The notes below the pieces were generated by a model that was given only the letters and a program-made list of their open reading frames with translations, was not told the origin of the DNA and did no database searches. From a virus (lineage: Duplodnaviria > Caudoviricetes), in IMG/VR virus record IMGVR_UViG_3300035502_000313, positions 128,001-192,000 of that record: a stretch of 64,000 nucleotides of DNA. One strand, 5' to 3'. The position numbers were made by a program, and so were the translations under genes. Positions 14,399 to 64,000 of the stretch are shown here, in pieces. Numbering within the stretch: position 1 is the stretch's first letter; each line of letters starts with the position of its first letter.

Positions 14399-14510
14399 AA
14401 AATAAACTAATTATACAAAAAAGAACAGCCAGAGTATCACAAGATACTCTGGTCATTCTTTTTAATTCACCTCTTTTCTTATTATATAGATTAGATTATT
14501 GCCACAATAA

Positions 14511-14549
14511 TCAATCGTATAGACCGCCTCCAAATCCATCTCCGAACAT
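14511..14549 (-). CDS. putative 12-aa peptide MFGDGFGGGLYD in a structured early transcript
   Basis: AAAGGAGGTG 6 nt before ATG; early promoter at 14616-14632. Confidence 0.35.
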   Translation of the reverse strand: MFGDGFGGGLYD

Positions 14550-14635
14550 ACTTAACACCTCCTTTCATTTTAGTATGTTCGATAATAGGCGGAAAGTAAT
14601 ATCTCCTCATATTACCACTATTATTATATATAACT

Positions 14636-31321: not shown

Positions 31322-31924
31322 TTATATATTCAGAAATCTCATAAATGTGCTTACATCATGTGCTTTTTTATGTGTTATAAATTTTACAGTAAAATAATCA
31401 CTACCAGTTCTATAATATAACTCTGCATCTAATTCTGTGCTTTTAGTACCAGGCAACATAGTGGGAGCTATATACATTGGTCTATTATCAATAAAGAACT
31501 TTCCTGCTCCATCTGCTGATTTTTTTATTAATACATTATTATAGAAAGTCTCATCTGTATTTAAAGAGTTTACATAAGATACATTATCAGATGTATAAAT
31601 ATCATTTGATATAGCTTTAAGAATACTCATAGCTTTATTATATTGCTGAATTGCATTATAAACTCCTATATTATCAAATGTATCTAATACACCAATATCT
31701 AATTCATATCCAATAGTCTTTTCTTTAATTACATCAACAGAATACATCTTATTGAAATATCTATCACTAATATCTTTACACTTAATCATTTTAATTCCAC
31801 TTGAATTAGGTGAGAATACTATATCTCCAAATACTGGATCTCTAGCTATATATACATAACTATCAGAAGCATTTAATTTAAATTCAGATATATATCCTCC
31901 AAGAATAGCACTTATATTAGTCAT
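31322..31924 (-). CDS. hypothetical protein coupled to DNA polymerase gene
   Basis: True start MTNISAIL with GGAGGAG RBS overlapping the polymerase stop; 200 aa. Confidence 0.7.
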   Translation of the reverse strand: MTNISAILGGYISEFKLNASDSYVYIARDPVFGDIVFSPNSSGIKMIKCKDISDRYFNKMYSVDVIKEKTIGYELDIGVLDTFDNIGVYNAIQQYNKAMSILKAISNDIYTSDNVSYVNSLNTDETFYNNVLIKKSADGAGKFFIDNRPMYIAPTMLPGTKSTELDAELYYRTGSDYFTVKFITHKKAHDVSTFMRFLNI

Positions 31925-33965
31925 TGTTAGTCTCCTCCATCTGCTTCGGTTTGCTATATAAATATCCTTCCTTAAGTGTATTAAAAATCTCTGTAAAGTT
32001 ATTAAAATCAGAACGTTTAAAATCATACTTAGGTTGATTGATAATACTCTTATCTCCGCAAGCCATTGCATGAACAATAGCAGCGTCTCTATCTGAATCA
32101 CAGAATACAAATAAAGGCTTAACCATACTATCAGGTTTATTAGATACATCATCAAAATCATGATAAGTCAATATGCCATCTGGATATCTGATATTAGTAA
32201 AGTATTCTATTACATCATCATACATTTCTTCATAACTTGCAAAATGGAACCAACGATTAAAGAATTCAATCCAGTTATGTGACTGTAGATCATCCATAAA
32301 CTGTGCTTCTCTTTTCCATTTTATTTCGTCTCTATGAAATCTATTTTCAAATTCATATACCTTATTCGGAATATTGACATGAGCAATCAAGGTTGTTCTT
32401 GACATGTTTGCTTCAGATGTGATTGATGGATAAAGGGCTTTATAATCATAATCATCCAAGTTATCATATATAGATACTGGACGTCCATTGATTTTACGTT
32501 TAGAATAATCACTGTTTAATTTAGGGTCAGCAACAAATGCACCTGGGAATGAAACTTTAGGTGTATTCTGATTTACATTGTTTCCTATAATCATTCCATA
32601 ATTATAGTATGATTTCGCTGCTCTATTCTTAAGATATACTGTTTGTCTATAAATCTTAGACCAACGTGTATTATTAAGAAGAACGTTATTATATGCTGAG
32701 TTAATATCATTAACCTTATATTCAATACAATACTGAACAATAGTATCCATGATATTATAAAATACAAATGTCTCATAATCTTTATAAGGTAATTCTGCTA
32801 AGTTCTTTGTAATATGACTATAATTAAGTTTCTTTACGCCACAAGTAATCTGTCCAATATAATCCAATTTATAACTTCCTATAGCTGCTTGTCCTTTACG
32901 TCTTGAAGCGAAATGAATCATCTGGTCTAACCATACTGAATACGAACTAATCTTTGCAAAGTCATTACGTTCTTCATACTTAAACTGATTTCTTTCATCA
33001 ATCATATAATTGACTTCTTTATATCTAAAATCAGGATGACACATAATATCTTTTGGATTAAATCCAAGATTGATAATACGCTGAATAATATACGGAACGT
33101 CGAATGCCATATTCCAAGCTAATACAAAATCAGGTTTAAGATTGTTAATATAATTAAACAATTGTCTAAGCATTTCTATTTCATCCTTTTCATCATAGAA
33201 ATGAAATACAACTTGCATTTTATCAACTCTATATTTTTTAGCTTGTTCTGGACCACCAACTGCATCAACAAGAAACTGTTTAAGTCTCATATTTAACATT
33301 GGTTCTTTTGATTCTCTTTCAAACTTCTCAATCAAAGGATTAGTATCATTTCTTAATAAGAATGAATGGATTATCAATGACTGGTCATCAATAAAAGAAA
33401 CTGCATTTATAGGACACTCGCCTAACTCTACAAAATCTCCTTTACAATTAATTGTATCTGCTTCGATATCAAGATATGCTTTTGAAGGAACTGTATAAGA
33501 ATTTTCATATGTGTGAGAAAACTGAAATCTAATATTATCTTCAATATCCATATCAGACATTAATATACTTGGGTCATAATTACACATTGTTTTATTAGCA
33601 GCTCTATTACCATTTCTACAATTGTCATAGAACTTATCTAACTTTCCAAGTCTTTCAGCAATATCCATCTGTAATTTGGAATATGGAACAATAACACATT
33701 TACAATCTTCTATCATAGCATACTCTAATGTATACTCAGGAATTTTCATATCACTTCTGAGTATATAATATTCGTACATCGGGTCTACAATAGTTTCGAG
33801 AAATTTCTCACCAGTTTTATTATCCTTAATAATAAGGTCTATAGCACCACTTTCCCATTTACCTTCATTATTCTTTCTAGGATAATGATATATCGTATTT
33901 AATAAAGATAATGGATATCCCTTAGGATATTGTCCTATGATAAAATCATTGTCGTAGTATTTCAT
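31917..33965 (-). CDS. family B DNA polymerase, N-terminal subunit (3'-5' exonuclease + motif A)
   Basis: YLDIEAD, AWNMAFDVPY, SYKLDYI, YNIMD exonuclease motifs; FPGAFV and DYKALYPS; lacks motifs B and C. Confidence 0.9.
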   Translation of the reverse strand: MKYYDNDFIIGQYPKGYPLSLLNTIYHYPRKNNEGKWESGAIDLIIKDNKTGEKFLETIVDPMYEYYILRSDMKIPEYTLEYAMIEDCKCVIVPYSKLQMDIAERLGKLDKFYDNCRNGNRAANKTMCNYDPSILMSDMDIEDNIRFQFSHTYENSYTVPSKAYLDIEADTINCKGDFVELGECPINAVSFIDDQSLIIHSFLLRNDTNPLIEKFERESKEPMLNMRLKQFLVDAVGGPEQAKKYRVDKMQVVFHFYDEKDEIEMLRQLFNYINNLKPDFVLAWNMAFDVPYIIQRIINLGFNPKDIMCHPDFRYKEVNYMIDERNQFKYEERNDFAKISSYSVWLDQMIHFASRRKGQAAIGSYKLDYIGQITCGVKKLNYSHITKNLAELPYKDYETFVFYNIMDTIVQYCIEYKVNDINSAYNNVLLNNTRWSKIYRQTVYLKNRAAKSYYNYGMIIGNNVNQNTPKVSFPGAFVADPKLNSDYSKRKINGRPVSIYDNLDDYDYKALYPSITSEANMSRTTLIAHVNIPNKVYEFENRFHRDEIKWKREAQFMDDLQSHNWIEFFNRWFHFASYEEMYDDVIEYFTNIRYPDGILTYHDFDDVSNKPDSMVKPLFVFCDSDRDAAIVHAMACGDKSIINQPKYDFKRSDFNNFTEIFNTLKEGYLYSKPKQMEETNND

Positions 33966-34036
33966 TTTTATTTCCTCCATTTACCAACGTACGCAATACG
34001 TACGTTTATATTTTATATAGTAGTTTGAGCATCTAT

Positions 34037-47198: not shown

Positions 47199-49424
47199 TT
47201 AACCCATGAACTTAAATAACTTATCTGTATTAGATTCAGATTCAGTAAGAGGCTCTTCTGATAAGAACTTCTGAGGCTGTACCATATACAATAAATCATA
47301 TGCGGAAGGCTCATGTTTCTTGAATGATAAAGGAGAATAAAGCATTCTTGCAATATCCTCTGACTGAAGTGATATACTAATATTTGGATGAGTACTGATA
47401 GCCTTTTTAAGAGTAAGAATCTGATAATTAGTTTGTTCAGGAACAGACCAATCAGGCATACTAATAATATCATCTCCAGAACGAATCTGATTCATAATAA
47501 TGATTTCAAGATGAACACTCATTATATTATCAAGTCCAATGTTATTAAGTTTATTACTAAGAGTTTCAAGGAATGTCTCAGCAGTATAACTATCTGTATT
47601 AGCCTTAAGGTTAATAACTTTAATTACAGATTCAAGTCTTTCACTCATATCATCATTATGAATAGAACCAATTGTAAATAAAGGATTATTATCACCAATA
47701 AGAGCAGATACTGGAAGAATAATATCTTCATCAATATCATTAAGATTCTTTAACTTGATATATTCTGTAAGCCAATCACTAAGATAGAAATTATCAACAT
47801 TAGAAGTTTTGATTGGATATTCTTCTCCAGTTGAGTCATTTCTCAGATAGAATATATTGATATACTTCATTGTATCTTCGAAGCTTGTATCAATATCATC
47901 ATCATTCTCGTCATTCTCAAGAGATGCAAGAATCTCTTCTTGAATATCTCCATCTCTAATAACAAGTTTCCATTTCTTTACATCTTCAAATTCTGGATTA
48001 ATAAATATTGTTCCTTCATCAACCATGATAAACTCAGAAATCTTTTCTTCAGATAAACATGAAGTATCAAAAGTAACACTATTAATTTTAGCTTCAAGAA
48101 GATGTTTAGCAGACAACATCATCTGTGTCAATGGTTCTGTAAGGTTAGTTACACTATATACTCCAATCTTTACAGCTGGAACAATACTATATAATTCTCC
48201 CATACATTTACGACAAATACCAAGTCCCATTGCTGCTGACTTACACTTAATAGGACTTCTAAGATAAATCTCTTTTCCAATAAGGTCAGAGTTATCTCTC
48301 ATAGCTTGATATACATTGCTGATTCTTTTTTCCATTCCAAAAGGATTAAGACGATAATATCTATCAGCAATTTTCTTAAGTGCAGTTTCATCACTTACCT
48401 TATATTTAAGAAAGTTTCTTGTACCACAATCATAAGAAGGATCAAGTTTATTTGTATACGGAATAGTATACTTATTCGTCTGAGAACAGTTCAATGTCAT
48501 TATTCGAGAGAACTGTCCTGAACGAGCAGTATTTTTCTTTGAAAGAATCTGTGCAATACGTGCAATCAGAGACTCAAGAATATGAAATGCAACATTATTT
48601 GCACCTCCATTAATATAATTGGTATTAACTACATATGGGAAGATACCTCCTTCACCATTTGGTTTAACACCAATATTAGTATACATTTCACGAGCCTGTT
48701 TAGGTTTGATACCTTCTTTAGCACGGAATGCATCTGACAAACAATGGTCACGACCAATATACTGTTTAGCATTAACGATATAATCTACAAGTCTATTCAT
48801 ATCATTAAGTGCTTCAGCATTCATTTGTTCTACTGGGAACTGAGAATAATAGTTAGTTTTGTGTCTATCCATTATCTCTTTGAATCCAGGACAATTGTTA
48901 TACATAAGAATAAAGTCCTCATTATTGATACTATTATTGAAGAACCATGCAAATTGGTCAACAAACTTAAGGTTTCTCAAAGTATCATAGATAACTCTAT
49001 TAAGGTTATGAATGATCATAACATCATTGTTCTTACCACATTCCTCTCTTACAGGAATAATAGCAAACTTATCAATGTACTCCTTAATATAACCATTAGT
49101 AATACCGTCCTTATTAAAGAAGACATGATAAGGTTTAATTTTCTGCTTGGTTTTTATTATAAAACCCCAAACGATAATGTTTGTTAAGGCATATGCAAGA
49201 GGAAGCCTTACACTCATTCCGTTGTCAAAAACGAATTCGATTTTTGTATTCTGAACTGATGTTATCTCAATATAGTCCAGAAATACATCTTTAAGATTGT
49301 TTGTATAGTCATCAATGGTTTCTTCAGTGATGTCTGATACATTGATACTAATAGGTTTACCGTATACCACTGGTGTAAAGATACCATAATCGTATACAGT
49401 TGTTTCAGGTGAGTTATTATTCAT
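47199..49424 (-). CDS. RNA polymerase beta' C-terminal subunit (non-virion RNAP, phiKZ gp74/AR9 gp154-like)
   Basis: Bridge helix KNTARSGQFSR, RSPIKC...ICRKCMG Zn site, trigger loop EPLTQMMLSAKH, SVHLEIII; early-type promoter. Confidence 0.9.
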   Translation of the reverse strand: MNNNSPETTVYDYGIFTPVVYGKPISINVSDITEETIDDYTNNLKDVFLDYIEITSVQNTKIEFVFDNGMSVRLPLAYALTNIIVWGFIIKTKQKIKPYHVFFNKDGITNGYIKEYIDKFAIIPVREECGKNNDVMIIHNLNRVIYDTLRNLKFVDQFAWFFNNSINNEDFILMYNNCPGFKEIMDRHKTNYYSQFPVEQMNAEALNDMNRLVDYIVNAKQYIGRDHCLSDAFRAKEGIKPKQAREMYTNIGVKPNGEGGIFPYVVNTNYINGGANNVAFHILESLIARIAQILSKKNTARSGQFSRIMTLNCSQTNKYTIPYTNKLDPSYDCGTRNFLKYKVSDETALKKIADRYYRLNPFGMEKRISNVYQAMRDNSDLIGKEIYLRSPIKCKSAAMGLGICRKCMGELYSIVPAVKIGVYSVTNLTEPLTQMMLSAKHLLEAKINSVTFDTSCLSEEKISEFIMVDEGTIFINPEFEDVKKWKLVIRDGDIQEEILASLENDENDDDIDTSFEDTMKYINIFYLRNDSTGEEYPIKTSNVDNFYLSDWLTEYIKLKNLNDIDEDIILPVSALIGDNNPLFTIGSIHNDDMSERLESVIKVINLKANTDSYTAETFLETLSNKLNNIGLDNIMSVHLEIIIMNQIRSGDDIISMPDWSVPEQTNYQILTLKKAISTHPNISISLQSEDIARMLYSPLSFKKHEPSAYDLLYMVQPQKFLSEEPLTESESNTDKLFKFMG

Positions 49425-50059: not shown

Positions 50060-50239
50060 TTCGGATATCCTCCTTTATAAAATATGTATTTATTAATTGC
50101 AATTAAAAGAAATGTATGATATATCATACTAATCAGTCTTTTTTATATTATTGTTCTGTTTTTAAAGAGTGAATAACAATTTGATAATAGATTACTGATT
50201 TAACGTAATAAGTAATCTGAGAATAGGAGGAAATATAAA

Positions 50240-52336
50240 ATGGATATTACGCAGATAGTCAACAGCAAGACAACGGACATTTATAAAAAAGAAATGATTG
50301 ATGCTCTTAAGCTTTCATTTCCAGGACTCACAGAGAAGGATATCAAAGAAGCTATAGATTATTCTATTATTAAACGTGGTTCTGATAGTAAGGCAGTACT
50401 CGATAATAACTATACGAAGACAAAAGAGAATAGAACTTTGTTTGAGGTTACAGATTATATAATTCAGAGAGAACCAATTATAACTGTATCTGGAGTTATG
50501 TTTAGAAGACATGGTTATTGTCCTAATCCGTTTGTTATGCTTATTCAGGAGTTTCTTAAACAAAGAGGTATTTATAAAGATACTATGTTTAAGTATCCTA
50601 AGGGTTCTGAAGAATTTGAAAAGTATAACATTCTTCAGCTTTCCGAGAAAGTATCAGGCAATGCAATGTATGGTGCTTCTGGTAATCATACAAGTATATT
50701 CTATAATCTTTATGTTGCACAAAGTATTACTATGCAGGGAAGAAGTTGTATTGCATCAGCAATTATGTTATTTGAAGCTACAATGGCAAATAATGTAAAG
50801 TTCTGTGGTCTTAATGAGGTAATTACATTCATCAATAATGTAAGAAGAGAATCAATCATTAATTATCCTGATGAAGTGATTATTGATAAAGATAAGTATG
50901 TAAGTGTAGAAGAATGTTTCTTTAAGATTATTTATAGTAGTGGATTTTATTGGATTCCTACTGAAAAAGAAATGACTCTTATTTGGGATATTCTTAATCA
51001 GTGCAATCAGCATGAACTAAATAAATTATTCTATAAGAATAATTTATTCTGGTTTGTAGATAATAGTGTAGTTATGAATAAGATTATATCTATTCTTTCT
51101 ACATTAGATGTGCCATTTATTGACCCTAATCATCCACCAAAGTGTATAGAAGACTCGGTAAATGAATTATATGATATGATATATGAATGGGTGTATTATG
51201 ATAAACAATATATGGATAGAATAGATAGAACAGAGAATATGTATCGTTGTGTTTCTATGCTTACTGATACAGATAGTTGTTTTATATCATTTGATGGATG
51301 GTATCGTTATATTCTTGATAAGACATTTAATATTCCTATGAAGATTAAAGAGATTGAGATTGATGAGAAAACTGGTAATGTAGATAAAGCATTCGATGTA
51401 GCATATGATTATGATTTCTATACAGATGAAATTATCGAATCTCAGAATATTATTCGTCCAGACGTTGTATCTCCTCAGGTAGGATTCAGATGTAGTATTA
51501 TTAATATTCTCGCAAGTATTATGGGTAGACTTGCTATAGATTATATGGGTAAATATTCTGATAATTCAAATACAACTAAATGTGAAGATGGTTCTAGACG
51601 TAAGAGTTTCTTTATATTAAAGAATGAATTCCAACTTAAACGTGCTCTCATCACAGATGGAAAAAAGAATTACTGTGCATATCAAGAACGTCAAGAGTCT
51701 AATATCATTCCTAGAGAAAAAGCATTAGCTATTACAGGTATGCCGATTAAAAAGGTTGGTGTTCCAGAATCTACTAAAGTAAGACTTCAGAAGATTCTTC
51801 TTGAACAAATACTTGATAATCCTGGAGAAATATCTCAGGTAGAAATAGTTAAACAACTTGCAATTCTTGAGAAACAGATTATAGAAGCTATTCATAATGG
51901 TAGTAAAGAATACTTTAAACCAGAAAGAATAAAAGCATTAGATGCATATGATAATCCTATGAGAGAATCTGGTGTAAAAGCTGCTGTAGCATTTAACTTT
52001 CTTAAAGACGATGATATGGAACCTATAGACCTTAATACAAGAAATAGTATTCTTAATATAAAGATAGATATTAATAATAAGAATATTGATGATCTTAGAG
52101 AAAGTCGTCCAGATGTATATGCTAAGGTTGTTGAACTTATGAAAAGAAAAGAATATGCTAAAGGAATCACTGGAATTGCAATTCTTGATGATATGCAAGT
52201 TCCTGAATGGATAAAAGATTATATTGACTATACTACAATAGTAAATGATAATCTTCATACATTCCCATGTGAAGCTATTGGTATAGATAGAAGAGAGAAT
52301 GATAATATAAACTTTACAAATATTTTGAGATTTTAA
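50240..52336 (+). CDS. family B DNA polymerase, C-terminal subunit
   Basis: EKVSGNAMYG (motif B), ITMQGR, TDTDS (motif C), KKNY. Confidence 0.9.
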   Translation: MDITQIVNSKTTDIYKKEMIDALKLSFPGLTEKDIKEAIDYSIIKRGSDSKAVLDNNYTKTKENRTLFEVTDYIIQREPIITVSGVMFRRHGYCPNPFVMLIQEFLKQRGIYKDTMFKYPKGSEEFEKYNILQLSEKVSGNAMYGASGNHTSIFYNLYVAQSITMQGRSCIASAIMLFEATMANNVKFCGLNEVITFINNVRRESIINYPDEVIIDKDKYVSVEECFFKIIYSSGFYWIPTEKEMTLIWDILNQCNQHELNKLFYKNNLFWFVDNSVVMNKIISILSTLDVPFIDPNHPPKCIEDSVNELYDMIYEWVYYDKQYMDRIDRTENMYRCVSMLTDTDSCFISFDGWYRYILDKTFNIPMKIKEIEIDEKTGNVDKAFDVAYDYDFYTDEIIESQNIIRPDVVSPQVGFRCSIINILASIMGRLAIDYMGKYSDNSNTTKCEDGSRRKSFFILKNEFQLKRALITDGKKNYCAYQERQESNIIPREKALAITGMPIKKVGVPESTKVRLQKILLEQILDNPGEISQVEIVKQLAILEKQIIEAIHNGSKEYFKPERIKALDAYDNPMRESGVKAAVAFNFLKDDDMEPIDLNTRNSILNIKIDINNKNIDDLRESRPDVYAKVVELMKRKEYAKGITGIAILDDMQVPEWIKDYIDYTTIVNDNLHTFPCEAIGIDRRENDNINFTNILRF

Positions 52337-52372
52337 CAAAAAAAGAAGTGGATGTAAAGTCCACTTCTTTTT
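52337..52372. terminator. bidirectional terminator
   Basis: AAAAGAAGTGGA-TGTAAAG-TCCACTTCTTTT. Confidence 0.85.
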
Positions 52373-52540
52373 CTTTATTATTTGAGGGTTTAAGGAGTGC
52401 CCTCAACTCCTTTATTTTCCCGAATTCTAACTCACTTATATTATATATATATCTAATTATTATGACTTTTACAAATACACAGTATAATCTTTCTACTTCA
52501 ACATACTTATAAACTAAGGTTTGAAAGGAGGAGTCTGTAT

Positions 52541-55500
52541 ATGTCTGTTCAAGTACAGAAGTATATAAAGAATTTAGGCAAGTCTATTACTTATTCTGCA
52601 GCCGATGTATTGAATAGCAAATTTGAATATATAAATGAAACTAAACAAGAGAATCAAGAAGTATTCAAAGAAGTATATCATTCTATAAAGGATTATAAAA
52701 ATACATTTGCTAGAGTAAAGAAAACTATTACTGATAATAAAGTAATGGATGCAGCCAGAGTAGGTTATAATTCTGTTTTATACAGTATTACAACTGGCGA
52801 TTTCTATGCTAAACAGAGAGAAGCAGAAGTCATGGAAAAATATGGAGGATCCTTCATGCAAGGATTTGACATGGATGACGATGACTTTGATTGGGACAAT
52901 GATGATTTATCTACAGGTGATAAGGTTGTTGCTACTGCTATTAAAAAGAATAGTAAGATAGGAACAGCTTTAACTGTAGAAGCTATATCTCAGACTGGTA
53001 AAGCACAGATGGATGTTTCTAGAGAAAACACTATGCTGTTATATACTCAGAATGAGCGTATGTTAAATAAATTAGATAATGGGTTTGGAAATATATTAGG
53101 TTTTCTAAAACAAAATGGAGAACAAACTGCAAAAGTTCAAAACCAGATGAATGAAAATCTTAATAAGTTTATGACAAATGTAGATAATAACATTACTAAA
53201 CTTACTAAACAAATGGATGAACTTCTCGAAATGCAGAGAAATATGTATAATCCTAAAAAAGAAGAAGAAAAACGTAAAGTCGGCTATGATGATATGATTA
53301 GTCGTAATGGTGTTTTAAATATTAAAGAGTATTCTAAGCATGTAAAAAAGAATGCTTTTAATACAATTAATGATATGTCTGGTGGAATGCTAAGTTATAT
53401 ATTTGGTGATTCTTTAGGACAAGGTTCTAACTTATTAGCACAATTTTCTGCTAATCCATTTAGAACAATATCAGAAACATTTATAAATAAAGCACTTGGT
53501 AAAAACTTTGATAGAGCTGCTAAAGAATTAAATACTACATTAGAAGGTATTGTACCATCTTTAATAGGCAAACTTAATGCTGCGTCTAAAAAAGATGATA
53601 GTGGTATTATGGGATTCTTAGGAAAAATCTTTGGTATTAAAGATGGCTCTAGAGAAAATATAGATACTAGTAGATACAATAAAGGTGCTATTCCTTTTGA
53701 TGGAATTACTAAGAGGGCTATAACAGATGTAATACCTTACTATTTAAGAAAGATGACTTCTGTCTTAACTGGTGAACAGGAAATGATATATGATTTCCAA
53801 ACTGGCAAATGGAGTAGTATGAAAGCTGTAAAAGCTGCTCATGATAATGCTGTAAATTCTGCTAAATATAGCACTGCTAATGCATTAACAGGAATTATAG
53901 AAAGTGGTTTAGGTGGTAGAAGATTAAGTGATTCGTATAAGAATAAATATGATTATGACAAAATAGTAAAAGCTATTGAATCTTTAGCAGGAAAATTACA
54001 AAATGCAGGAGACTTCGGAAGCGTTGATGAATCTCTCGATATATACGAAAGAGATGTAATGAAAATGCTAAGAGAAGCTATGCGTCTTGATGATGGAAGT
54101 GGAAATGATAGAAGATTTACTAGAAATTCAAAAGGTAAAAGAATTTCTTCTGGAATACAGAGAAGTGCTATCGGTGGATTCAATAATATGCTAAGACAAA
54201 ATAGATTATCTCAAAATAATACTATAAAAAGTATAAATAATGGAGATTCTATATTACGAATCATAGAATCAGAAGGTCTTGCATCTCAAAGTACTGAAAA
54301 TTATCAAGCAAAAAGTTTTGTTAATAGTCATGGTGATTTTGATCAAAATAAAATTCAACAAATGCCTGTTACACAAGCTTTAATTCGTGGTAGAGATGAA
54401 TATGGAGTTACTCTATATCAATATCTTAGAGACATGGATCTTAGTTTACGTTATATTAAAGCTAATTCTACTTATCTTGGAAGTCTTAATAGTAATGAAA
54501 ATGGTGAATCTAATAAGAATAATGAAGAGATAGTTAAGCATATTCTTAAAGATGGAGACATTGATTTTACTAAAGATAAAGAATCTCAATACATTGAAAA
54601 ATATTTTGAGAATATGCAAAATAAAAATAGACGTAAAGAAGAAGATGATTGGGATAAAAGAATTTCAGAAGCTAGAAAAAGAGCTGCAGCTAAGGGAGAA
54701 ATATATACATTAGCTACATCAACTGATTTTGAAAGTTCAAATGGTGATACAGGAATAGCTAATATAATGCGTAATAGTAGTTCTAAAACTGCTGCTAAAG
54801 CTAAAATAGCATATACTAGAGAACAACAGAAACAAGAAGAAGAAAGATGGAAGGCTATTGCTGGTATAATCGGCCAAGAGGAAGCGAATAAAGCTAGAGC
54901 TAACTTAGATCAATATGACTCTGATAAGAGTATAAAAGATAATATGGAAAAAGTTAAAGATAAAGGCTTTACTGCTAGTCTTATGATGTTTGCTAAATCT
55001 CTTGGCAATAAAATACGTAATCCTGGCGATGCAGCTGCCGATACTATTGTTAAAGTAGATTATTGGTTACAGAAACTCATATATGGTGAAGATTTAAAAG
55101 ATTCCGAAAATGGTAGAAAATCTTTATTTGAAAATATGAAAGATCAATTCCAAAAGGGTATACAAGGAATTAGAGAATCTATAGATAAAGGTTTTGAAAA
55201 ATTAAAAGAAAAAGTTAGTCCATTATTTAAACCACTCAAAGAATTAGGTAAAAAAATATTTGGTACAAAAGATGAAAATGGTTTTTATCAAGGTGGTATG
55301 ATAGGATCATTTATCGGAGGTGTTCAAAAAGGTTTTCGTAGAAATTCTTCGGATTTTTCAGGCTATATTAAAAATCAATATTCAGACTTTAAAAATAGAT
55401 TTACTCAAGATAGACCTGAACCTGAATTATCGTCTAAACAAAAATATGATGCTAGACGTTCAGAGATAATGAATAAATTAAATCGAGAAGCAGAAAGTGA

Positions 55501-58500
55501 AAACCAAATTATTAGTGGTAATGCATTAGAAAAGATTGCTAATATATCAGCATATAGAGTTAAACAGTCTTCTGTAAATAATGAAAAAATAGATGGAGAT
55601 GTTAAAAGAGCTGCTAGAAAGCAAGCTATGATAGATGAATTAACTAGAAAGATAGAGAATCAAGAAGCTTCAGTTATTTCTAGTGAAAAGTCAATTGCTT
55701 CGTTAAAACAACAATTACAAACTAAATTATATAATAATGAAGATCCTGGGGATTTAGAAAAAAAATTAGAAAGTCAAGAAAAGGTTTTAGAAAAGACAAA
55801 GGCTAATTTGAAAAATAATAAACAAAAGTTAGCCAAAATAGTAAATAGCACTACAAAAAATAAATACATGGCTGTTGGCGGTGTTAATAAAACAGGAAAG
55901 CCATTTAGATCTGTATTATCTGCAGGTGAGTTACATAACGGAAATATAGTTCCTAAAATGGGTATATATCAAATTAATCCTGGTGATACTGTTATAAATC
56001 CTGCTGGTGCTGCTACAAGAGCTAAACAAGCTAATGCCGAAAGAAAGTATCTTGCTAATATAAGAAGAAATGCAGAAGCTAATGACAAATTAACTCCAAC
56101 CGATGATACTAAAACTAAGGACAAAGATTCTGATGAACAGAATAAAAAGAAGATTCAGCAACTTCTTACTGATACAGACTGGAATAGTTTATCTACTAAA
56201 GAACAAAAGAAAGAATATATCGGTAATGTTGTTTCTAAAGGTTTAATTGGTGGCGGATTAGGTTTACTTGTAGGTGGACCTTTAATAGGTGCATCTATCG
56301 GTGCTGCTTCTGCTTTAACTAAATCTACTGGTTCATTTGCTAGTTTCTTATTTGGTGAAGCTGTTACCGATAAAGATGGTAATATACAAGTTGATGATAA
56401 AGGTAATGTTAAAAGAGCTGATAATGGTCTTATTAGTCAGGAAATAATGAAGGCTGTGCCAGATATTAAGAAGTATGGTCTTGGTGGTGCAATTGCTGGT
56501 CTATTAACTCCTATCGGTCCTTTAGGCGGTGTTCTTGTTGGCTCTGCATTAGGATTTGCAAAGAATTCTGAAATATTCCAAGGCTCTTTATTTGGTGAAG
56601 GTGGAATATTCTCTGAAGAGAATAAAGCTAAATTTAAAAAAGGTGCTAAAAGCATGGGAATCGGTGCTGCTATTGGTGCGTTTACTGGTGGTCCATTTGG
56701 TTTAGTAGGTAATGCATTATTAGGTGCTACTGCAGGCTATGTTACATCAACTGACAAATTCAAAGACTTTGTTCTTGGTGAAAAAGATGATCCAAATAAT
56801 CCTGAAAGTAAGAGACATGGTGGTGTCATGGGTGTTCTTAAGAGTGCTGTTGAACCACTAAAAGATTTTGGTAAAACACTTACTAACGGTATATTAGATG
56901 CTGTGTTTGGTAAGAAAAATGGTGAAAATGGCAAACGTGAAGGTGGATTATTTGGACTTGTAAGAAAAACTATAATAGATCCTTTAGCAGACGGCACAAA
57001 GACCATGGTAAATGCATTAAATGAAAAAGTAAGAGACATCGGATTTATGGCTAAAAAGACTTGGAAGAAAATTCAAAGAAAAATGGCTGGTAATGATGGA
57101 GCAGGAGTATTTGGTGAATTTGGTCAAAAAATTGCTAAGGGTGCCACTAAAATAGCCAAAGGTGCAATTATGGCTCCACTACTTCCTTTAATGGGAGGAG
57201 TAAAATTAGCACAAAAAGGTATTTTTAATCCAATTAAGAGAAAATCAATTAGAACTGGTAAAGCAAGTCATATGACTGCTAGAGAAAGATTAAAAGCAAG
57301 AGGCGAGCTTGGTATGGCTGAATATGATGACTATACTCTTTTTGATAACTCTCTTACTGAAATGGACAATGATTCTATTCAGTCATTAAAAGATAGACTT
57401 TCGGTTTATGTAGATGGCGATGATGCAGCGTTTAAAGAACAGAATAATCTTTTTGACAGTACAGGAAGAGAACTGAGAGATTATATATCATCAAAAAATG
57501 CAAATAAAATTATGAAAAGTCTTAAAAAAAATGACTATAGAGAAGCTGAAAGATTAATTAGAACTGGTAATTTTAAAATAGAGGGTGGTGAAGCTAATAG
57601 AGGTAAACTTGAAGCAATAATTAAAAAGCATAAAAGAAAATATTCTACAATCGATGAAAGAATGGCTAAAGCTAACAGTGCAAGCAAATTATCAAGTAAA
57701 GTTCTTAAAGATGAATATGGCCTTGATGTTGATTTAAACGATCCAAGAGATGTTGATAAGGTTAAGAGAATGCTTGATAGAGAACTGATTCATAACGAAG
57801 CTGGATTAACTGAAGAGGATATGGAATTTGATAGAATGAGAGAATTCTGGTCAGATGATAAATCTCCTCTTAAGACAGTTAATAGTGGTGTAGAAGCTGT
57901 AGTTAAAACTTTAGATAATATTTATAATGAAGTAAAACTAGGTAATGAATATGACAAGTTATCTGATGAAGAAAAATCTAAATATGAATCTAGAGAAGAT
58001 TATATTCAAAAGAATAAAGCTACTGCTGAACCAGATGCTACTCAAGATAAACTCAATGGTAAAAAATCTGATTCTACTAATAAACATAGAAAATTTTCTA
58101 GGGTTAAAATGGTACAAGAAAATCCAGATAAATTCTCAAAAACTATAAAGAGAATTATTGAAGAAGCATTGAAATTATTTGACGGAAAAGTAATGGAAGA
58201 AATTAGTGACCCAAATAAAATTAAAATAGATATCGATAAATGGAAATTAGAGAATCCAGATAAAGACTATAATAATGAAAAGCTTATTAGAACTAATATT
58301 ATTATTGATAGTCTTGACCAAAAGTATGAGTTTGACTGTGCTTATGTATGTAAGCAAAGTGGTAATAATTTCTCAGTTGAAATTGCTAAAAATCAATCAG
58401 AGAGTTTCGAAACATGTAGAGAAGATTTTGCTAATGCATATCTAGATGCACGTATGCCTAAAAGTGCTAAAGGTAAAGGCAGTTATATGAGTTTTAAAGA

Positions 58501-61500
58501 CATGGTTAAAAAGACTATAAAGATATCAGGATTCTTTGTAGCTGCTAGTATTGTTCCTGGTGGAGCTCTTGTTTTAGGAGCAAAACTTGCTTTTATGAAA
58601 ATAGCTAAAAAACGTGGATGGGATAAAAAACTCAAAAATGGTATTAGACGTGTTAAAAACGATGTAAAACATGTTCTTGGTTCTCATGCGATTGATTCAA
58701 GTTCAAAAAGACAACAAAGAAAAGAAAAAAACTATAATGCAAAAGCTGAAAAAGTACTTCAGAAAATGATAGAAAAAGGTGATGCTCAGCTAGATACTAT
58801 AGCACAAGAAAAATATAAAAAGAACTATTCTGAGTTAACTGATGATGAAAAATCAGCGGTAAATGCTACATTCAAAGAAAGATATGTAAATAATAAAATT
58901 GCTAATCAAGTTACCGGTCATGGTTTATTAGGAAATATTAAAGCTGCTCCTAAAGCTCTCATGGGAACTTTAAAATCTGGTATAAAAAATCTAACTGCTG
59001 GTAAAATTGATAAAGTCAAAGAGAAAATACAAAAACAAAAAGAAGAAGATAGATTTATAGGAAAATTATTTAATAAACTAGATAAATGGAAACTAGGAAG
59101 AGATGAGAAAAACTTTAAAGGTAAAAAGGATAGTAGACTTGCTAAAATACTGAAATGGCTATTTATAGGCGGTATTGCTGTTCCTATACTAGTAGGATTT
59201 GTTAAAGATAAAATCATGCCTGCTGTTCATGATAAGATTCAACCATGGCTAAAGAAAGCTGCACAAAAGCTTATTGGTACTAAGAATGAACAAACTGGTG
59301 AATATGAAGGTGGAATAATAGCTGGTATCGTAAATCCTGTTAGAAACTTCTTTAAAGACAAATTCCAAACTATTAGTGATTGGTTCCATAATAAAGGAAA
59401 GTTTACTAGTCCCGATACTGGTTTCAAAGGATTAATAGGAAACTTTAAATCTGCAATCAATTACGGTATAACACTATGGAAAGATGGTACATCTACAATT
59501 CTAAATGATTGCTTGCCTAAAGTAGTTGAAGGAATAGTAGCTAATTTACCAACTATACTTGGTGCTATAGGAACTGGTTTAATAAATGGTATAAAGGATA
59601 TCTTTTTTGGTAAAAAAGATGGTACTGGAGAACAATCATTAGAAACTGTAAATGCTTCTCAGATGGTTGATTCTACTTCTTCTAGTAGCGATAATGATTC
59701 ATCTTCTTCAAGTACTGGAATTAAATTTAATAATACAGTTGGTGGAACATGGGTTGAAACAGTAGGTGGATCGTCAACTAAAGTAGGAAGTTATGTAGAT
59801 GTAGTTTCATTAAATAGTGACATATATCAACCTACTTCAAGAAAAACTAATGATGATGGATCGACAACTTTAACAAATGAAAATACTGGAGAATCTGTTA
59901 CATCTGAATTTATTGATGATGATTCGATGGTATCTGCTGGTACAAACAAAGCTGGAGATAAAATATATTATAAGAGAACAGATGTTAACAGAACTCAACC
60001 GTATACAAAGGCTAATGACGGTGAATATGTTAGAATGGATAAGCAATCCAGTGTTATGCTTAGCAGTCTTCAAGACAATCAAAGCTATGCTGATATGGTT
60101 GCTGATAACGATGCTGGAGACGCTGGTGTAACTGATTCTTATACAGGAACAAACCCAGCTTTAGAAAAGACAGCATATGCTGGAAAAGTATTAACTAAAG
60201 CAGCAACTAGTAAATCAGGTGCTAAAGGTCTTTCTATGGCAATTAAAGCTGGAGGAAAAGGTGTTAAAATAGCTGGTAAAATGATTAATCTTATTCCAGG
60301 CACAAATGTTGCTGGATGGGCTACAAAGAAATCATTAGGAAAAGTTGGAGATAAAATAGTTGATTCTGCAGATGATGTATCATATAAATACTATAATTTC
60401 ATGCAATCTAAAATATCCAAAGCAGTAGAAAATAGTAAAGTTCTAAGCAAGGTTAATAATGCAGGAATTAAGATTAAAAATGCTCCTAAAAATATAGCTG
60501 AGAAAGCTAAAAATGCTATAAAAAATAAAATGGGAAAAACTGCAGAGAATGCTACTAAAAATGCAGCCGAGAATGCCGCAGAAAAAGCCGCTAAAGAAAC
60601 TGCTGAAAAAACAGCTAAAGAAGCTGCAGAGAATGTTACTAAAAATGCAGCTGAAAGTGTTATGGAAAGTTCTACTAAAAATGCAGCTAAAACAGGAGGA
60701 ACCTCATTTTTAGCTAAATCCGTTAAAGAATTATTTGAAAAAGCCAAAAGTAAAATAATTGAATGGTTTGCAAAGCTATTTAAAGGTAGTGCTGTAAAAG
60801 AAGCTGCAAAAAATGCTGGACGTGAAATAACAGAAGAAACTGCAGAAAAATTAGCTAAAGAAACTGGTGAAAAATTAGTTAAAGAATGTGCTGAACAGGG
60901 TGCTGAAAAAATAGCTACAGTAGCTGGTAAAAACCTCGTATCATCAGCATGTGATTGTTCTGGTATAGGAGTAGTAATTAATATAGCATTTGCTATAGCA
61001 GACTTCTTACTAGGTATGGATGATGCTAGAAATATATTACAAATTACTGGAGATGATATTCCATTATCTTATAGATTCTTCGCAGGTCTTGCTAATACAA
61101 TGCAAGATATTCCAATTGTCGGAATATTATTAGGTTGTATTGGAGCTAAGAACATTGTTTATTATCTAGTAGAATGGTTTGGAGATATTCTCTTCCCTGA
61201 AGCTACTGAAGAATTAAAGAAGAGACAAGAAGAAGCACAACAAACTCTTGAACAATATAATGCACAAAATAATACTAATTTAACACTAGAGCAGTATAAT
61301 AATAAAAAGTACGCTACTGTATCAAGTACAGTAAGTGGATGGTTCTCAGATGCTGGTTCATTCTTATCAGGAAAAGATGCTACAGTATCAGAAGCTATGG
61401 AAACAAGACGAAATGTAGCAGATTCTAATGATACTGTAACTGACATAAGAGAAAAACTTGAAAGTATAGCTTCTCATATGTGGGAAAAACAAGGTGATAA

Positions 61501-64000
61501 ATTTAAAGATTTTAACCTTAGTAAAGATACATATGGAAAGTTATGTGCTGAAGTTATTGATAAGATAGTATTATTACTAAATGGATTAGATGATGATTCA
61601 TTAAGTAAAGTTTTAACTAGTGCTGGAAAAATAGAAACAGGATTTTGGGCAAATGCTGGTTACACTACTCTAAAATATCTTACTTTTGGTGCTTATGATG
61701 GTGACCCATTTGTTGATGCATGGGATGACGGTTATAAAGGTCTTTCATATCTTGGTCTTGATAAAAAAGATGGATGGGAAAATACAAGTGTTGTAAAATG
61801 TATCGGTGGTATAGCTTCAGTATTTGTTAAGGCATGTGGTGGAGCTAACTTAAAATGGAAAATTATTGACATCGTAATTTCTGTATTTGGTAATGGTATG
61901 GCTGGAGATTCTATAGATGAAAATTCTAAGAAACTTGTAGAAAATAGCAATTCCAAAATATCAAATATTAATGATGCGTATGATTCAAATTTACACGGAA
62001 ATTCTGGTACAACATCTGTAAGTCTGTCATCGTCCGATTCGTCATCAACATCTACAGCAGAAGATGTAGTTGCAAATGCAAATGCTAATAGTAAATTATC
62101 AGCTATATCTGGATTGTACAACACAGCTAAATCAAACATGATTAACACTGCAGGTTTTATAGATGATAAGATAAGCAGTAGTCTATTTGGCGAAGTATAT
62201 AATAATGCTAAATCAACTGCATCTGGATTGTATAACACAGCTAAATCAAACTTAAAATCTACAGCATCAGGTTTATATAATACTGCTAAATCAAACATGA
62301 TTAACACTGCAGGTTTTATAGATGATAAATTAAGTAATAGTCCATTTGGTGGAATATACAATTATGATAAATCTGCTGCATCAGGATTATGGAACTTCTT
62401 TAAAGGAATATTTACTAATGCAGAAGCTAATAGTAACTTATCTCCTATAAATATGACATCAAACAATAAAGATAAAAATAGTGGTTCGTCAATAGGTAGA
62501 TTTCTAATGCTTATTCCTAATACTATTAATAATGCTATAACAAATATGACTGGTGATTTAAGTAAAATAGAAGATATGTTCTCTGGTCTAGTTAAAAAGA
62601 ATAAGAGTATAAATGATTCTATTGATTCTTTATCATTACTTCCTACAGATAAAAAATATTGGGATATCGAAGTAGATAATGATAACCCATTTGTAAGTGG
62701 ACTGTTTAAATTTGTTGAATCTATGAACAGAGTTGTTAAGGCACCATTCTCTTTGGCAGTTTCGTCATTAGGAAAGGGATTGTCTGCTGTTTCGTCTTCA
62801 TCATCAAACAGTAGTAGTTCTTCTTCATCTTCGTCATCAAGTGGATCAACAAATAGTAGTGATAGTTCTTCTAGTAGCAGTTCTAGTAGTAGTGGTGGTA
62901 TTTTATCTAAAATTGCTACTGGTGCTAAATCAATATTTAAAAAGGTTTCATCTGGTATAAAGAGCTTTTTTGGTTTTGGTAAAGGTAAAGATGATTATGA
63001 TGATACTGGTTATGGTGATGATCCTTTCCATATTTATCAAAGAGATTATAAAGGCTCATATAGAACTACTGGAGATTCAGAAAGTCAAACTATAGCAGAT
63101 TCAGGTTGTGGACCAGCTGCAGCAGCATCATTGTTAAGAATGTATGGCAAGAAGGGTGATATGCATAATGCTGTTAATTATGCTTTAAGTAATAAATATA
63201 AAGAAGTAGATGGTGGTACATATCCTCAATACTTTAATGATTACTTAAATAAGAACGGTATTAGTACAAACTCTAATGCAGATAATAATGATGTAGTAAA
63301 TAGTCTTATTCACAATAAGCCTGTTATCTTAATGGGACGTGATTCAAGTAATAGTGGTACAACGCCTTATGGATCTAAGTATTCTCACTATGTAGTAGCT
63401 AGAGGACTGGATTCAAATGGTAATGTTATAGTAGAAGATTCTGAAGATAAGAACGGTAGTACTAGATATAGTCTAGCAGATACTCTAAGAAATTCATCAG
63501 TAAGAATAACAACCGGTAATGGTAAATATGGTAGAGGTGCTACATCATCTATGGCTGAAAACTTTACCACAGGCGTTAGCTATACTGTAACATCAGCAGT
63601 TTCTAATATAGTATCTAATGCAGCAAATTCTGTGGCTGGACTATTAGGAAGTAGCTCTACATCATCTAGTACATCTAATGATGCATCTGCAAGCACTAAT
63701 GGCGTAGAAGGAAGTATTACTGCTGATACTGATGTTAAGACAAAATGTGGTTATACTGCTGATCAATTAAAAGCTGCTATTACATCAATTCATTCAGGAT
63801 GCAGTGCAGAACAATTCCCTGAACTTGCTATACAAGTTGAAAATTCTAAGGGTGTCAATGCATTATTTACAATAGCTGTAGCTATTAGTGAACATGGATG
63901 GGATGGTACAATTGGTGTTAATACTACCGGTGCAAACTGGGGTAACTATAACCCATTCAATATATCCGGTTCTCCTAACTCATCAAATGGAAGATGGAAA
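52541..64000 (+). CDS. giant tape-measure/tail-associated lysin (>=3820 codons, runs off the window), not in ORF track
   Basis: ATG after GAAAGGAGGAG and late promoter; frame still matches at the window end (...ISGSPNSSNGRWK); Gly-zipper TM segments at about 56220-56740; C39-like SGCGP...HYVVA at about 63030-63510; glucosaminidase-like GVNALFTIAVAISEHGW...NPFNI from about 63750. Confidence 0.85.
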   Translation, partial: MSVQVQKYIKNLGKSITYSAADVLNSKFEYINETKQENQEVFKEVYHSIKDYKNTFARVKKTITDNKVMDAARVGYNSVLYSITTGDFYAKQREAEVMEKYGGSFMQGFDMDDDDFDWDNDDLSTGDKVVATAIKKNSKIGTALTVEAISQTGKAQMDVSRENTMLLYTQNERMLNKLDNGFGNILGFLKQNGEQTAKVQNQMNENLNKFMTNVDNNITKLTKQMDELLEMQRNMYNPKKEEEKRKVGYDDMISRNGVLNIKEYSKHVKKNAFNTINDMSGGMLSYIFGDSLGQGSNLLAQFSANPFRTISETFINKALGKNFDRAAKELNTTLEGIVPSLIGKLNAASKKDDSGIMGFLGKIFGIKDGSRENIDTSRYNKGAIPFDGITKRAITDVIPYYLRKMTSVLTGEQEMIYDFQTGKWSSMKAVKAAHDNAVNSAKYSTANALTGIIESGLGGRRLSDSYKNKYDYDKIVKAIESLAGKLQNAGDFGSVDESLDIYERDVMKMLREAMRLDDGSGNDRRFTRNSKGKRISSGIQRSAIGGFNNMLRQNRLSQNNTIKSINNGDSILRIIESEGLASQSTENYQAKSFVNSHGDFDQNKIQQMPVTQALIRGRDEYGVTLYQYLRDMDLSLRYIKANSTYLGSLNSNENGESNKNNEEIVKHILKDGDIDFTKDKESQYIEKYFENMQNKNRRKEEDDWDKRISEARKRAAAKGEIYTLATSTDFESSNGDTGIANIMRNSSSKTAAKAKIAYTREQQKQEEERWKAIAGIIGQEEANKARANLDQYDSDKSIKDNMEKVKDKGFTASLMMFAKSLGNKIRNPGDAAADTIVKVDYWLQKLIYGEDLKDSENGRKSLFENMKDQFQKGIQGIRESIDKGFEKLKEKVSPLFKPLKELGKKIFGTKDENGFYQGGMIGSFIGGVQKGFRRNSSDFSGYIKNQYSDFKNRFTQDRPEPELSSKQKYDARRSEIMNKLNREAESENQIISGNALEKIANISAYRVKQSSVNNEKIDGDVKRAARKQAMIDELTRKIENQEASVISSEKSIASLKQQLQTKLYNNEDPGDLEKKLESQEKVLEKTKANLKNNKQKLAKIVNSTTKNKYMAVGGVNKTGKPFRSVLSAGELHNGNIVPKMGIYQINPGDTVINPAGAATRAKQANAERKYLANIRRNAEANDKLTPTDDTKTKDKDSDEQNKKKIQQLLTDTDWNSLSTKEQKKEYIGNVVSKGLIGGGLGLLVGGPLIGASIGAASALTKSTGSFASFLFGEAVTDKDGNIQVDDKGNVKRADNGLISQEIMKAVPDIKKYGLGGAIAGLLTPIGPLGGVLVGSALGFAKNSEIFQGSLFGEGGIFSEENKAKFKKGAKSMGIGAAIGAFTGGPFGLVGNALLGATAGYVTSTDKFKDFVLGEKDDPNNPESKRHGGVMGVLKSAVEPLKDFGKTLTNGILDAVFGKKNGENGKREGGLFGLVRKTIIDPLADGTKTMVNALNEKVRDIGFMAKKTWKKIQRKMAGNDGAGVFGEFGQKIAKGATKIAKGAIMAPLLPLMGGVKLAQKGIFNPIKRKSIRTGKASHMTARERLKARGELGMAEYDDYTLFDNSLTEMDNDSIQSLKDRLSVYVDGDDAAFKEQNNLFDSTGRELRDYISSKNANKIMKSLKKNDYREAERLIRTGNFKIEGGEANRGKLEAIIKKHKRKYSTIDERMAKANSASKLSSKVLKDEYGLDVDLNDPRDVDKVKRMLDRELIHNEAGLTEEDMEFDRMREFWSDDKSPLKTVNSGVEAVVKTLDNIYNEVKLGNEYDKLSDEEKSKYESREDYIQKNKATAEPDATQDKLNGKKSDSTNKHRKFSRVKMVQENPDKFSKTIKRIIEEALKLFDGKVMEEISDPNKIKIDIDKWKLENPDKDYNNEKLIRTNIIIDSLDQKYEFDCAYVCKQSGNNFSVEIAKNQSESFETCREDFANAYLDARMPKSAKGKGSYMSFKDMVKKTIKISGFFVAASIVPGGALVLGAKLAFMKIAKKRGWDKKLKNGIRRVKNDVKHVLGSHAIDSSSKRQQRKEKNYNAKAEKVLQKMIEKGDAQLDTIAQEKYKKNYSELTDDEKSAVNATFKERYVNNKIANQVTGHGLLGNIKAAPKALMGTLKSGIKNLTAGKIDKVKEKIQKQKEEDRFIGKLFNKLDKWKLGRDEKNFKGKKDSRLAKILKWLFIGGIAVPILVGFVKDKIMPAVHDKIQPWLKKAAQKLIGTKNEQTGEYEGGIIAGIVNPVRNFFKDKFQTISDWFHNKGKFTSPDTGFKGLIGNFKSAINYGITLWKDGTSTILNDCLPKVVEGIVANLPTILGAIGTGLINGIKDIFFGKKDGTGEQSLETVNASQMVDSTSSSSDNDSSSSSTGIKFNNTVGGTWVETVGGSSTKVGSYVDVVSLNSDIYQPTSRKTNDDGSTTLTNENTGESVTSEFIDDDSMVSAGTNKAGDKIYYKRTDVNRTQPYTKANDGEYVRMDKQSSVMLSSLQDNQSYADMVADNDAGDAGVTDSYTGTNPALEKTAYAGKVLTKAATSKSGAKGLSMAIKAGGKGVKIAGKMINLIPGTNVAGWATKKSLGKVGDKIVDSADDVSYKYYNFMQSKISKAVENSKVLSKVNNAGIKIKNAPKNIAEKAKNAIKNKMGKTAENATKNAAENAAEKAAKETAEKTAKEAAENVTKNAAESVMESSTKNAAKTGGTSFLAKSVKELFEKAKSKIIEWFAKLFKGSAVKEAAKNAGREITEETAEKLAKETGEKLVKECAEQGAEKIATVAGKNLVSSACDCSGIGVVINIAFAIADFLLGMDDARNILQITGDDIPLSYRFFAGLANTMQDIPIVGILLGCIGAKNIVYYLVEWFGDILFPEATEELKKRQEEAQQTLEQYNAQNNTNLTLEQYNNKKYATVSSTVSGWFSDAGSFLSGKDATVSEAMETRRNVADSNDTVTDIREKLESIASHMWEKQGDKFKDFNLSKDTYGKLCAEVIDKIVLLLNGLDDDSLSKVLTSAGKIETGFWANAGYTTLKYLTFGAYDGDPFVDAWDDGYKGLSYLGLDKKDGWENTSVVKCIGGIASVFVKACGGANLKWKIIDIVISVFGNGMAGDSIDENSKKLVENSNSKISNINDAYDSNLHGNSGTTSVSLSSSDSSSTSTAEDVVANANANSKLSAISGLYNTAKSNMINTAGFIDDKISSSLFGEVYNNAKSTASGLYNTAKSNLKSTASGLYNTAKSNMINTAGFIDDKLSNSPFGGIYNYDKSAASGLWNFFKGIFTNAEANSNLSPINMTSNNKDKNSGSSIGRFLMLIPNTINNAITNMTGDLSKIEDMFSGLVKKNKSINDSIDSLSLLPTDKKYWDIEVDNDNPFVSGLFKFVESMNRVVKAPFSLAVSSLGKGLSAVSSSSSNSSSSSSSSSSSGSTNSSDSSSSSSSSSSGGILSKIATGAKSIFKKVSSGIKSFFGFGKGKDDYDDTGYGDDPFHIYQRDYKGSYRTTGDSESQTIADSGCGPAAAASLLRMYGKKGDMHNAVNYALSNKYKEVDGGTYPQYFNDYLNKNGISTNSNADNNDVVNSLIHNKPVILMGRDSSNSGTTPYGSKYSHYVVARGLDSNGNVIVEDSEDKNGSTRYSLADTLRNSSVRITTGNGKYGRGATSSMAENFTTGVSYTVTSAVSNIVSNAANSVAGLLGSSSTSSSTSNDASASTNGVEGSITADTDVKTKCGYTADQLKAAITSIHSGCSAEQFPELAIQVENSKGVNALFTIAVAISEHGWDGTIGVNTTGANWGNYNPFNISGSPNSSNGRWK
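62126..62328 (+). repeat. 44-nt direct repeat (period 159 nt) within tape measure gene
   Basis: GCTAAATCAAACATGATTAACACTGCAGGTTTTATAGATGATAA at 62126 and 62285, plus SGLYNTAKS peptide repeats. Confidence 0.85.

Follow-up and report, generated by a model that had tools for sequence, protein, structure and literature searches.

A gene-less early-promoter unit with interleaved helices beside the DNA polymerase gene of a jumbo phage

In a virus record of 212,182 bp, a 204-nt gap lies between two plus-strand genes, one for a divergent family-B DNA polymerase (PolB) and the other a giant ORF, and the minus strand of this gap carries an early-type promoter, a ribosome-binding context and a terminator with no gene between them. 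Our favoured reading, held with a little more than even confidence, is that this unit is an early accessory-gene cassette, now empty or collapsed, that yields a non-coding RNA of ~97 nt with a bistable module that hides a Shine–Dalgarno (SD) sequence. RNA synthesis would begin at about G52433 from a promoter of the virion-RNA-polymerase type, here called P1 (52452–52434, minus), and the RNA would pass a leader with a normal-looking ribosome-binding site (RBS) context but no start codon before stopping at the bidirectional terminator that also ends PolB. The genome would have kept the promoter, RBS and terminator of the slot, the coding sequence being gone, and in the predicted RNA the SD AAGGAG could be hidden by pairing with ACUCCUU, or stay accessible if UUGAGGG and CCCUCAA pair instead.

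Locus and anatomy of the unit

We analysed a 64,000-nt stretch (the window, bases 128001–192000 of the record, which has direct terminal repeats and 31% GC); coordinates are those of the window unless marked as genome positions. Multisubunit RNA polymerase (RNAP) genes, with window matches to the beta/beta′ homologues phrog_2986 (E 1.7e-85), phrog_3015 (E 7e-45) and phrog_2962, together with a split PolB, indicate that the phage is, by gene content, of the AR9/phiKZ-like jumbo type with its own multisubunit RNA polymerases. The family-B polymerase appears to be divided between two genes (phrog_3011 and phrog_2927) that lie on opposite strands with ~16 kb between them. A search with PF00940 (T7-like single-subunit RNAP) gave no match in the genome, nor in control genomes, and none of 50,697 phage records matched 50200–54200 in a 'distant' blastn search. 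A replication origin at the locus was considered and rejected, as the minimum of cumulative GC skew lies at genome 134 kb, far from 180.4 kb. The features on which the argument draws are the following.

754, 2606, 11598, 14606, 16859, 44800 and 52423, minus: anchors of the P1 copies in the window; 10 further copies lie elsewhere in the genome.
14636–16435, minus: RNA-polymerase beta-like subunit (PHROGs).
31917–33980, minus: second PolB piece (phrog_3011, PHROGs).
47199–49424, minus: RNA-polymerase beta-like subunit (PHROGs).
50240–52336, plus: divergent family-B DNA polymerase, PolB (Pfam PF20286, E 1.6e-27; phrog_2927).
52340–52372, both strands: bidirectional intrinsic terminator, common to PolB (plus) and the orphan unit (minus); arms 52340–52352 and 52360–52372, 13 bp.
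52382–52406, minus: hairpin B, UUGAGGG (52406–52400) with CCCUCAA (52388–52382), −8.9 kcal/mol; it excludes hairpin A.
52392–52412, minus: hairpin A, AAGGAGU (52412–52406) with ACUCCUU (52398–52392), −7.6 kcal/mol; it would sequester the orphan SD.
52413–52432, minus: 5′ leader, ending in the typical RBS context AAAAUAAAGGAG and lacking the 5′-terminal stem-loop of other P1 transcripts.
52433, minus: predicted transcription start, the G of AGTG, placed by analogy with AR9; AGTG/A is kept in all copies, and the alternative AT-repeat register would give 52431.
52434–52452, minus: P1 early-type promoter core, an AT block then AAGT, just 5′ of the predicted start (nhmmer, 15.0 bits).
52467–52475, minus: TTTGTAAAA element 5′ of P1, common to several P1 copies at variable spacing (alignments).
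52500–52511, plus: AR9-type late promoter AACA-N6-TA of the giant ORF (AACATACTTATA), 30 nt before the ATG.
52541 to 64000 and beyond, plus: giant late ORF, ATG at 52541, genome 180541–195543; 5000 aa, of which at least 3820 aa are in the window.

The order of these elements on the minus strand is observed directly, running from the promoter (52452–52434; TATATATAATATAAGTG spans 52449 to 52433) through the interleaved helices (52412–52382) to the terminator (52372–52340). The TTTGTAAAA element stands 28–30 nt from P1 in five copies and far closer in the copy 44627. The start site is a prediction that follows AR9, where the start falls 6 nt past the AT block. The leader terminates in AAAAUAAAGGAGU, with no start codon after it; the RBS context AAAATAAAGGAGT(T/G) recurs before real genes of this phage group, with an ATG 6–9 nt downstream.

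The preliminary description had proposed an early-like minus-strand promoter followed by two interleaved helices and a bidirectional terminator, with no usable start codon, and this outline holds. The promoter, as set out below, is a repeated motif that fits the AR9 early consensus with direction tallies that agree, and both helices at 52412–52382 are 7 nt long and 100% complementary. The terminator has a GC-containing stem flanked by A/T runs on both sides, and compensatory changes occur in 9 of its 14 pairs across nine sequences including relatives. The only start past the SD is a TTG that abuts AAGGAG with zero spacing and opens a 30-aa frame reading through the terminator. The next frame (106–133 aa) lies past the terminator, antisense to PolB, and was rejected as the gene of the unit, being broken by 3–6 stops in 10 of 11 relatives. 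The terminator U-run ends near 52335, and the predicted RNA, whose length is deduced, is probably ~95–100 nt (~97) and non-coding.

Early and late promoters and the variable slot

The P1 family and its direction were established directly by counting. An nhmmer profile returned 48 matches at E ≤ 50, 18 of them at ≥7.5 bits; one inside a 774-aa gene was dropped, leaving 17 intergenic copies in the genome, two of which had fallen inside spurious or over-extended ORFs of a greedy ORF map. Their consensus is TATATA[AT]TAT[AT]AGT followed by G. Read in the TATATAAT→AGTG direction, 15 of the 17 precede a co-directional ORF, whereas the opposite reading gives 8 of 17; nine sites fit one direction only, and eight of these fit P1, the sole exception being the unit's own copy. 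The other copy outside the 15, at genome 142606, precedes a 12-aa micro-ORF. The P1 core pattern (≤1 mismatch) has 36 matches in five complete relatives versus 3 for a reversed control. Among 30 copies fetched from relatives, 27 are followed within 420 nt by an SD-led ORF of at least 40 aa, and the remaining three by shorter ORFs (29, 12 and 10 aa), each with a clear RBS. Across the 47 early-promoter copies examined, that of the unit is the only one without an ORF.

The motif fits the experimentally defined AR9 early consensus, given in the accessible text of PMC5312081 as AAATATATATTAT-(6N)-G+1: ATATATATATAAT-ATAAGT-G agrees with AAATATATATTAT-(6N)-G at 11 of 13 block positions, counted by eye. 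As judged from its motif, P1 is an early promoter of the AR9/phiKZ, virion-RNA-polymerase type. The copy in the unit scores mid-range among the 17 intergenic copies, and over the ~20 nt that end at the predicted start it has the same sequence as a gene-driving copy at genome 110314; P1 paralogues have long identical stretches in common. The promoter core is undamaged, which suggests that an RNA is probably made. A 5′-terminal stem-loop pairing the first nucleotides is present in 11 of the 12 P1 copies anchored by script (5 of the 17 were not anchored by the regular expression), and the exception is the unit's copy.

Several features of the P1 family extend beyond this locus. The stem-loops show compensatory differences among paralogues, for example GATAAT/ATTATC, GATAGA/TCTATC and GATAAAT/ATTTATC. 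The early unit at window ~14420–14634 (minus; P1 copy at genome 142606) consists of a strong RBS and the 12-aa micro-ORF, MFGDGFGGGLYD, followed by hairpins and a terminator; the same promoter type precedes MGDGFGGGIGSY in one relative (L051) and MGDGFGGFVD in another (L057), and these counterparts point to a conserved micropeptide. Two families of long (~110–360 nt), highly conserved 5′ leaders stand behind early promoters and recur before different small genes, within and between genomes. The first comprises L042, L052, L055, L056, L062 and L063 with genome 44627, 91004 and 110314, and the second L035, L046, L050 and L061 with genome 79170. Rfam at the gathering threshold gave 0 matches at seven relatives' loci with P1 leaders (including L042, L052, L046 and L050).

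The giant ORF has a late promoter of its own. The accessible text of PMC5312081 gives the AR9 late consensus as AACA-(6N)-TA/G, and the corresponding motif upstream of the giant ORF is kept in 11 of 11 relatives, including two that lack P1. AACA-N6-TA is enriched between genes (1.80 vs 0.78 per kb per strand); of its 54 intergenic matches, 43 lie upstream of a co-directional gene. P1 is therefore not needed for the giant gene, and a reading of the P1 motif as a plus-strand promoter of the giant ORF is overturned by the orientation tally and the separate late motif. The late motif is often extended to AACATnTnnATAA, 15–30 nt upstream of RBSs. The sole Pfam match of the giant ORF is Peptidase_C39_2 (aa 3519–3634); in relatives the ORF measures 4578–5669 aa in seven records that do not visibly cut the frame; two short records give frames of 2111 and 2312 aa.

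A PolB search gave 12 loci at 77–88% protein identity, of which 11 could be assessed, one (L008) ending inside PolB. In nine of these relatives the interval from PolB to the giant ORF measures 346–844 nt and contains a single small minus-strand gene, preceded by a good RBS and driven by an orthologous P1; the two others, with gaps of 86 nt (L013/L024) and 300 nt (L015/L028), lack both a gene of this kind and a leftward early promoter. The slot genes differ among relatives, and none of the eight slot proteins tested had a Pfam match above cut-off. This comparison marks the gap out as a variable accessory slot, with the PolB terminator at one end and the early promoter at the other. In L015, a rightward early-promoter-like motif followed by a GTAGAG...CTCTAC hairpin lies just past the PolB stop (~5095–5180, plus), and this 300-nt gap without an ORF may be another gene-less arrangement.

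The element itself was sought widely. Its 31 nt were not found in 10 relatives' records, and scanning for the element or leader, with exact or degenerate patterns, gave 0 matches in viral contigs and 0 in metagenome contigs, collections from which records very close to the window may be absent. With a 68-nt stretch as the query, blastn against the 10 relatives' records returned only 13–29-nt matches, the best of which (E 2.9e-4) is an unrelated terminator; blastn-short against the phage's own genome and all loci returned only RBS-like 10–15-mers. Within its own genome the element is unique even with 6 mismatches allowed. No ancestral gene fragment was identified in the ~60 nt of the unit, so we infer its origin by gene loss from synteny only.

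In 13 DNA sequencing runs at most 0.25 of the words were present. Runs X1–X4 gave no contig across 52340–52441, and short contigs on either side were 95–99% alike. One contig from run X2 (151 nt, depth 3) follows 52444–52525 with 1 difference and then continues leftward into a canonical P1 leader, not the element. This single low-depth contig hints that a near-identical strain differs here, with the break inside the promoter AT tract.

Folding of the interleaved helices and competing readings

On the plus strand the inverted repeats are TTGAGGG (52382–52388) with CCCTCAA (52400–52406) and AAGGAGT (52392–52398) with ACTCCTT (52406–52412), nucleotide 52406 belonging to both. We scanned the 212-kb genome and 321 dinucleotide shuffles for interleaved 7+7 Watson–Crick helices (≥3 GC per helix, span ≤40): the genome has one such locus, against a mean of 0.053 in the shuffles, 17 of which contain at least one. 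The real genome has 440 7-bp helices versus 85 in shuffles and, because it is five times richer in them, the shuffle null is generous to the finding. The interleaved arrangement is unusual (about 1 in 20 per genome), not overwhelming. The only other locus with interleaved 6+6-bp helices lies outside the window at genome 78374–78413, inside the minus-strand gene 78065–78595, and is probably due to chance.

In nested folding the 43-nt core does not stand out from shuffles (z = −1.64), 12 of 200 of which do equally well. Hairpin B is its minimum free energy (MFE) structure; in the minus-RNA ensemble the fully formed hairpins A and B have probabilities of 0.048 and 0.238, and neither dominates, while in a 103-nt context the MFE structure is the SD-closing hairpin, extended by GGG/CCC. 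With both 7-bp helices formed at once, the loops that connect them would measure 0, 1 and 3 nt, so that a full H-type pseudoknot would probably be sterically strained; given A-form geometry, presumably only a trimmed pseudoknot of 5–6 + 6 bp could close here. The preliminary description had left the choice between an H-type pseudoknot and exclusive hairpins. Our analysis leans towards the exclusive hairpins: two near-isoenergetic hairpins, one of them hiding the orphan SD, are the better-supported description.

This complementarity also sits uneasily with an empty cassette, as a plain deletion scar does not predict interleaved 7+7 helices, with 0.053 expected per genome, and selection on the predicted RNA is possible. 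The support from run X2 for the empty cassette comes down to that one 151-nt contig at depth 3. The next most credible reading, to which we give a distinctly smaller share of belief, is a functional early small RNA (sRNA): the ~97-nt transcript would be under selection and its SD/anti-SD module, or a trimmed pseudoknot, would act in trans. Its CU-rich arm might, just as tentatively, pair with the ribosome-binding sites of target mRNAs, or the RNA might titrate a host factor. The intact promoter, the strong terminator within ~100 nt and the helices that are unusual against shuffles are consistent with such an RNA, as are the comparable short units called sRNAs in jumbo phage 201phi2-1 (accessible text of PMC11512511). 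Against it, the element stands alone, with no counterpart in 10 relatives' records or in the viral and metagenome scans; one P1 copy in 47 without an ORF is no recurrent design; and the fold of the core is unexceptional (z −1.64).

A related proposal looks improbable to us, namely that an injected virion RNAP makes the ~97-nt early RNA in the first minutes of infection and that its SD/anti-SD switch or trimmed pseudoknot serves as a decoy or regulator; that it would do so by occupying, for example, ribosomal subunits or an RNA-binding defence protein of the host is similarly doubtful. If this were true, an RNA would occupy a slot that holds small early proteins in relatives.

The element could also work on the plus strand, where AAGGAGT/ACTCCTT followed by TATTTT would form a weak second terminator behind that of PolB and insulate the late giant gene, the competing TTGAGGG/CCCTCAA hairpin being incidental or an anti-terminator; we regard both parts of this reading as unlikely. 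The site is flagged as terminator-like (7 pairs, 3 GC, tail TATTTTCCCG), with 2 such sites found vs 0.5 expected, and a similar SD-like hairpin with a T-run acts as a terminator in the relative G012. The overall plus-strand fold is strong (z −6.09), mostly owing to the first terminator. Relatives nevertheless manage with a single bidirectional terminator, and the arrangement shows no conservation. The order of synthesis also weighs against the reading: the competing hairpin emerges first and prevails in the ensemble (P 0.675 vs 0.023), so that the terminator form would seldom fold.

There is an equally slim chance that the locus is a silent scar, in which the P1 copy is unused, the region is untranscribed spacer and the helices arose by chance, as they do in about 1 in 20 shuffled genomes. 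Two extra AT bases in the upstream tract of this copy, or its local context, might keep it from being used; its spacing to TTTGTAAAA is 30 nt instead of 28, and the accessible text of PMC5312081 describes the AR9 virion RNAP as very sensitive to single deviations from consensus. The identity of the ~20 nt before the predicted start to a gene-driving copy speaks against silence, and the TTTGTAAAA spacing is not fixed in other active-looking P1 copies.

The preliminary description had further suggested an anti-defence decoy modelled on ToxI, the antitoxin of type III toxin–antitoxin systems, and a comparison with antitoxin models. Rfam holds a ToxI model. Over 51800–53000, no antitoxin family appeared at E ≤ 10; the 12 matches at that level were all below the gathering score and terminator-driven, and a tandem-array search of the same interval (minimum score 30) found 0. 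In the accessible text of PMC5086642, type III antitoxins are 34–36-nt units repeated 2.8–5.5 times, with ~1.8–2.5 repeats needed for function. The element is alike in unit size (~31–35 nt) and in a formally possible H-type topology, and it sits in an early accessory slot; it differs in being a single copy with loops of 0, 1 and 3 nt, without the defining tandem repeats, single-stranded tails with a toxin cleavage motif, a covariance-model match, a homologue in any search, or a cognate toxin. A ToxI/CptI/TenpI-like pseudoknot mimic neutralising a host type III toxin is thus very improbable.

If the empty-cassette reading is right, the unit is a clean natural example of early-promoter cassettes gaining and losing small accessory genes in AR9/phiKZ-like jumbo phages. 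Its promoter–RBS–terminator shell would probably still yield a short RNA, and such shells would be raw material for new sRNAs. It also cautions that a structured, gene-less promoter unit is not always a designed regulator. More reusable than the element are the early and late promoter consensus for this uncultured freshwater jumbo-phage group, the 5′-terminal stem-loops on early transcripts and the conserved long leaders.

Comparison with known systems

Orphan Shine–Dalgarno elements known as STAB-SD stabilise mRNAs in Bacillus, where they protect downstream coding mRNA. The unit resembles them in having an SD-like sequence near the RNA 5′ end without a start codon, and differs in that no coding sequence comes after it and pairing can hide the SD.

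The closest parallel in promoter architecture is with the early units of AR9/phiKZ, which, in the accessible text of PMC5312081, have a long AT-rich block, 6 nt and then a conserved G start, occur in many copies before early genes, and belong to phages with late promoters of the form AACA-N6-TA and encoded multisubunit RNAPs. The motif here differs in detail (TATATA[AT]TAT[AT]AGT followed by G), and this predicted unit has no gene. Transcripts of the present phage usually start with a predicted 5′ stem-loop, whereas the word 'hairpin' has no match in that accessible text.

Jumbo phage 201phi2-1 provides a precedent for short early-terminated transcripts: the accessible text of PMC11512511 reports 11 sRNAs, 3 of them intergenic, with a terminator closely after the start site. 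They are like the unit in their intergenic position, in a promoter and terminator less than 250 nt apart and in a phage with its own RNAPs. Cappable long-read RNA-seq revealed the 201phi2-1 sRNAs, one of which is conserved between genera, whereas the unit here is predicted and unique to one genome.

The PeSLs of T4-type phages are cassettes of an early promoter and a stem-loop that mediate modular shuffling, according to the accessible text of PMC2839356 and PMC4122927. As may also hold at the PolB slot, repeated promoter/stem-loop modules lie on either side of small, non-essential genes of variable regions, and close relatives differ by insertion, deletion or replacement at the modules. The promoter class and polymerase are different here, and the stem-loop lies downstream of the start instead of being an upstream terminator. 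From one contig and synteny we infer that recombination at P1, as in PeSLs, may have shaped this slot.
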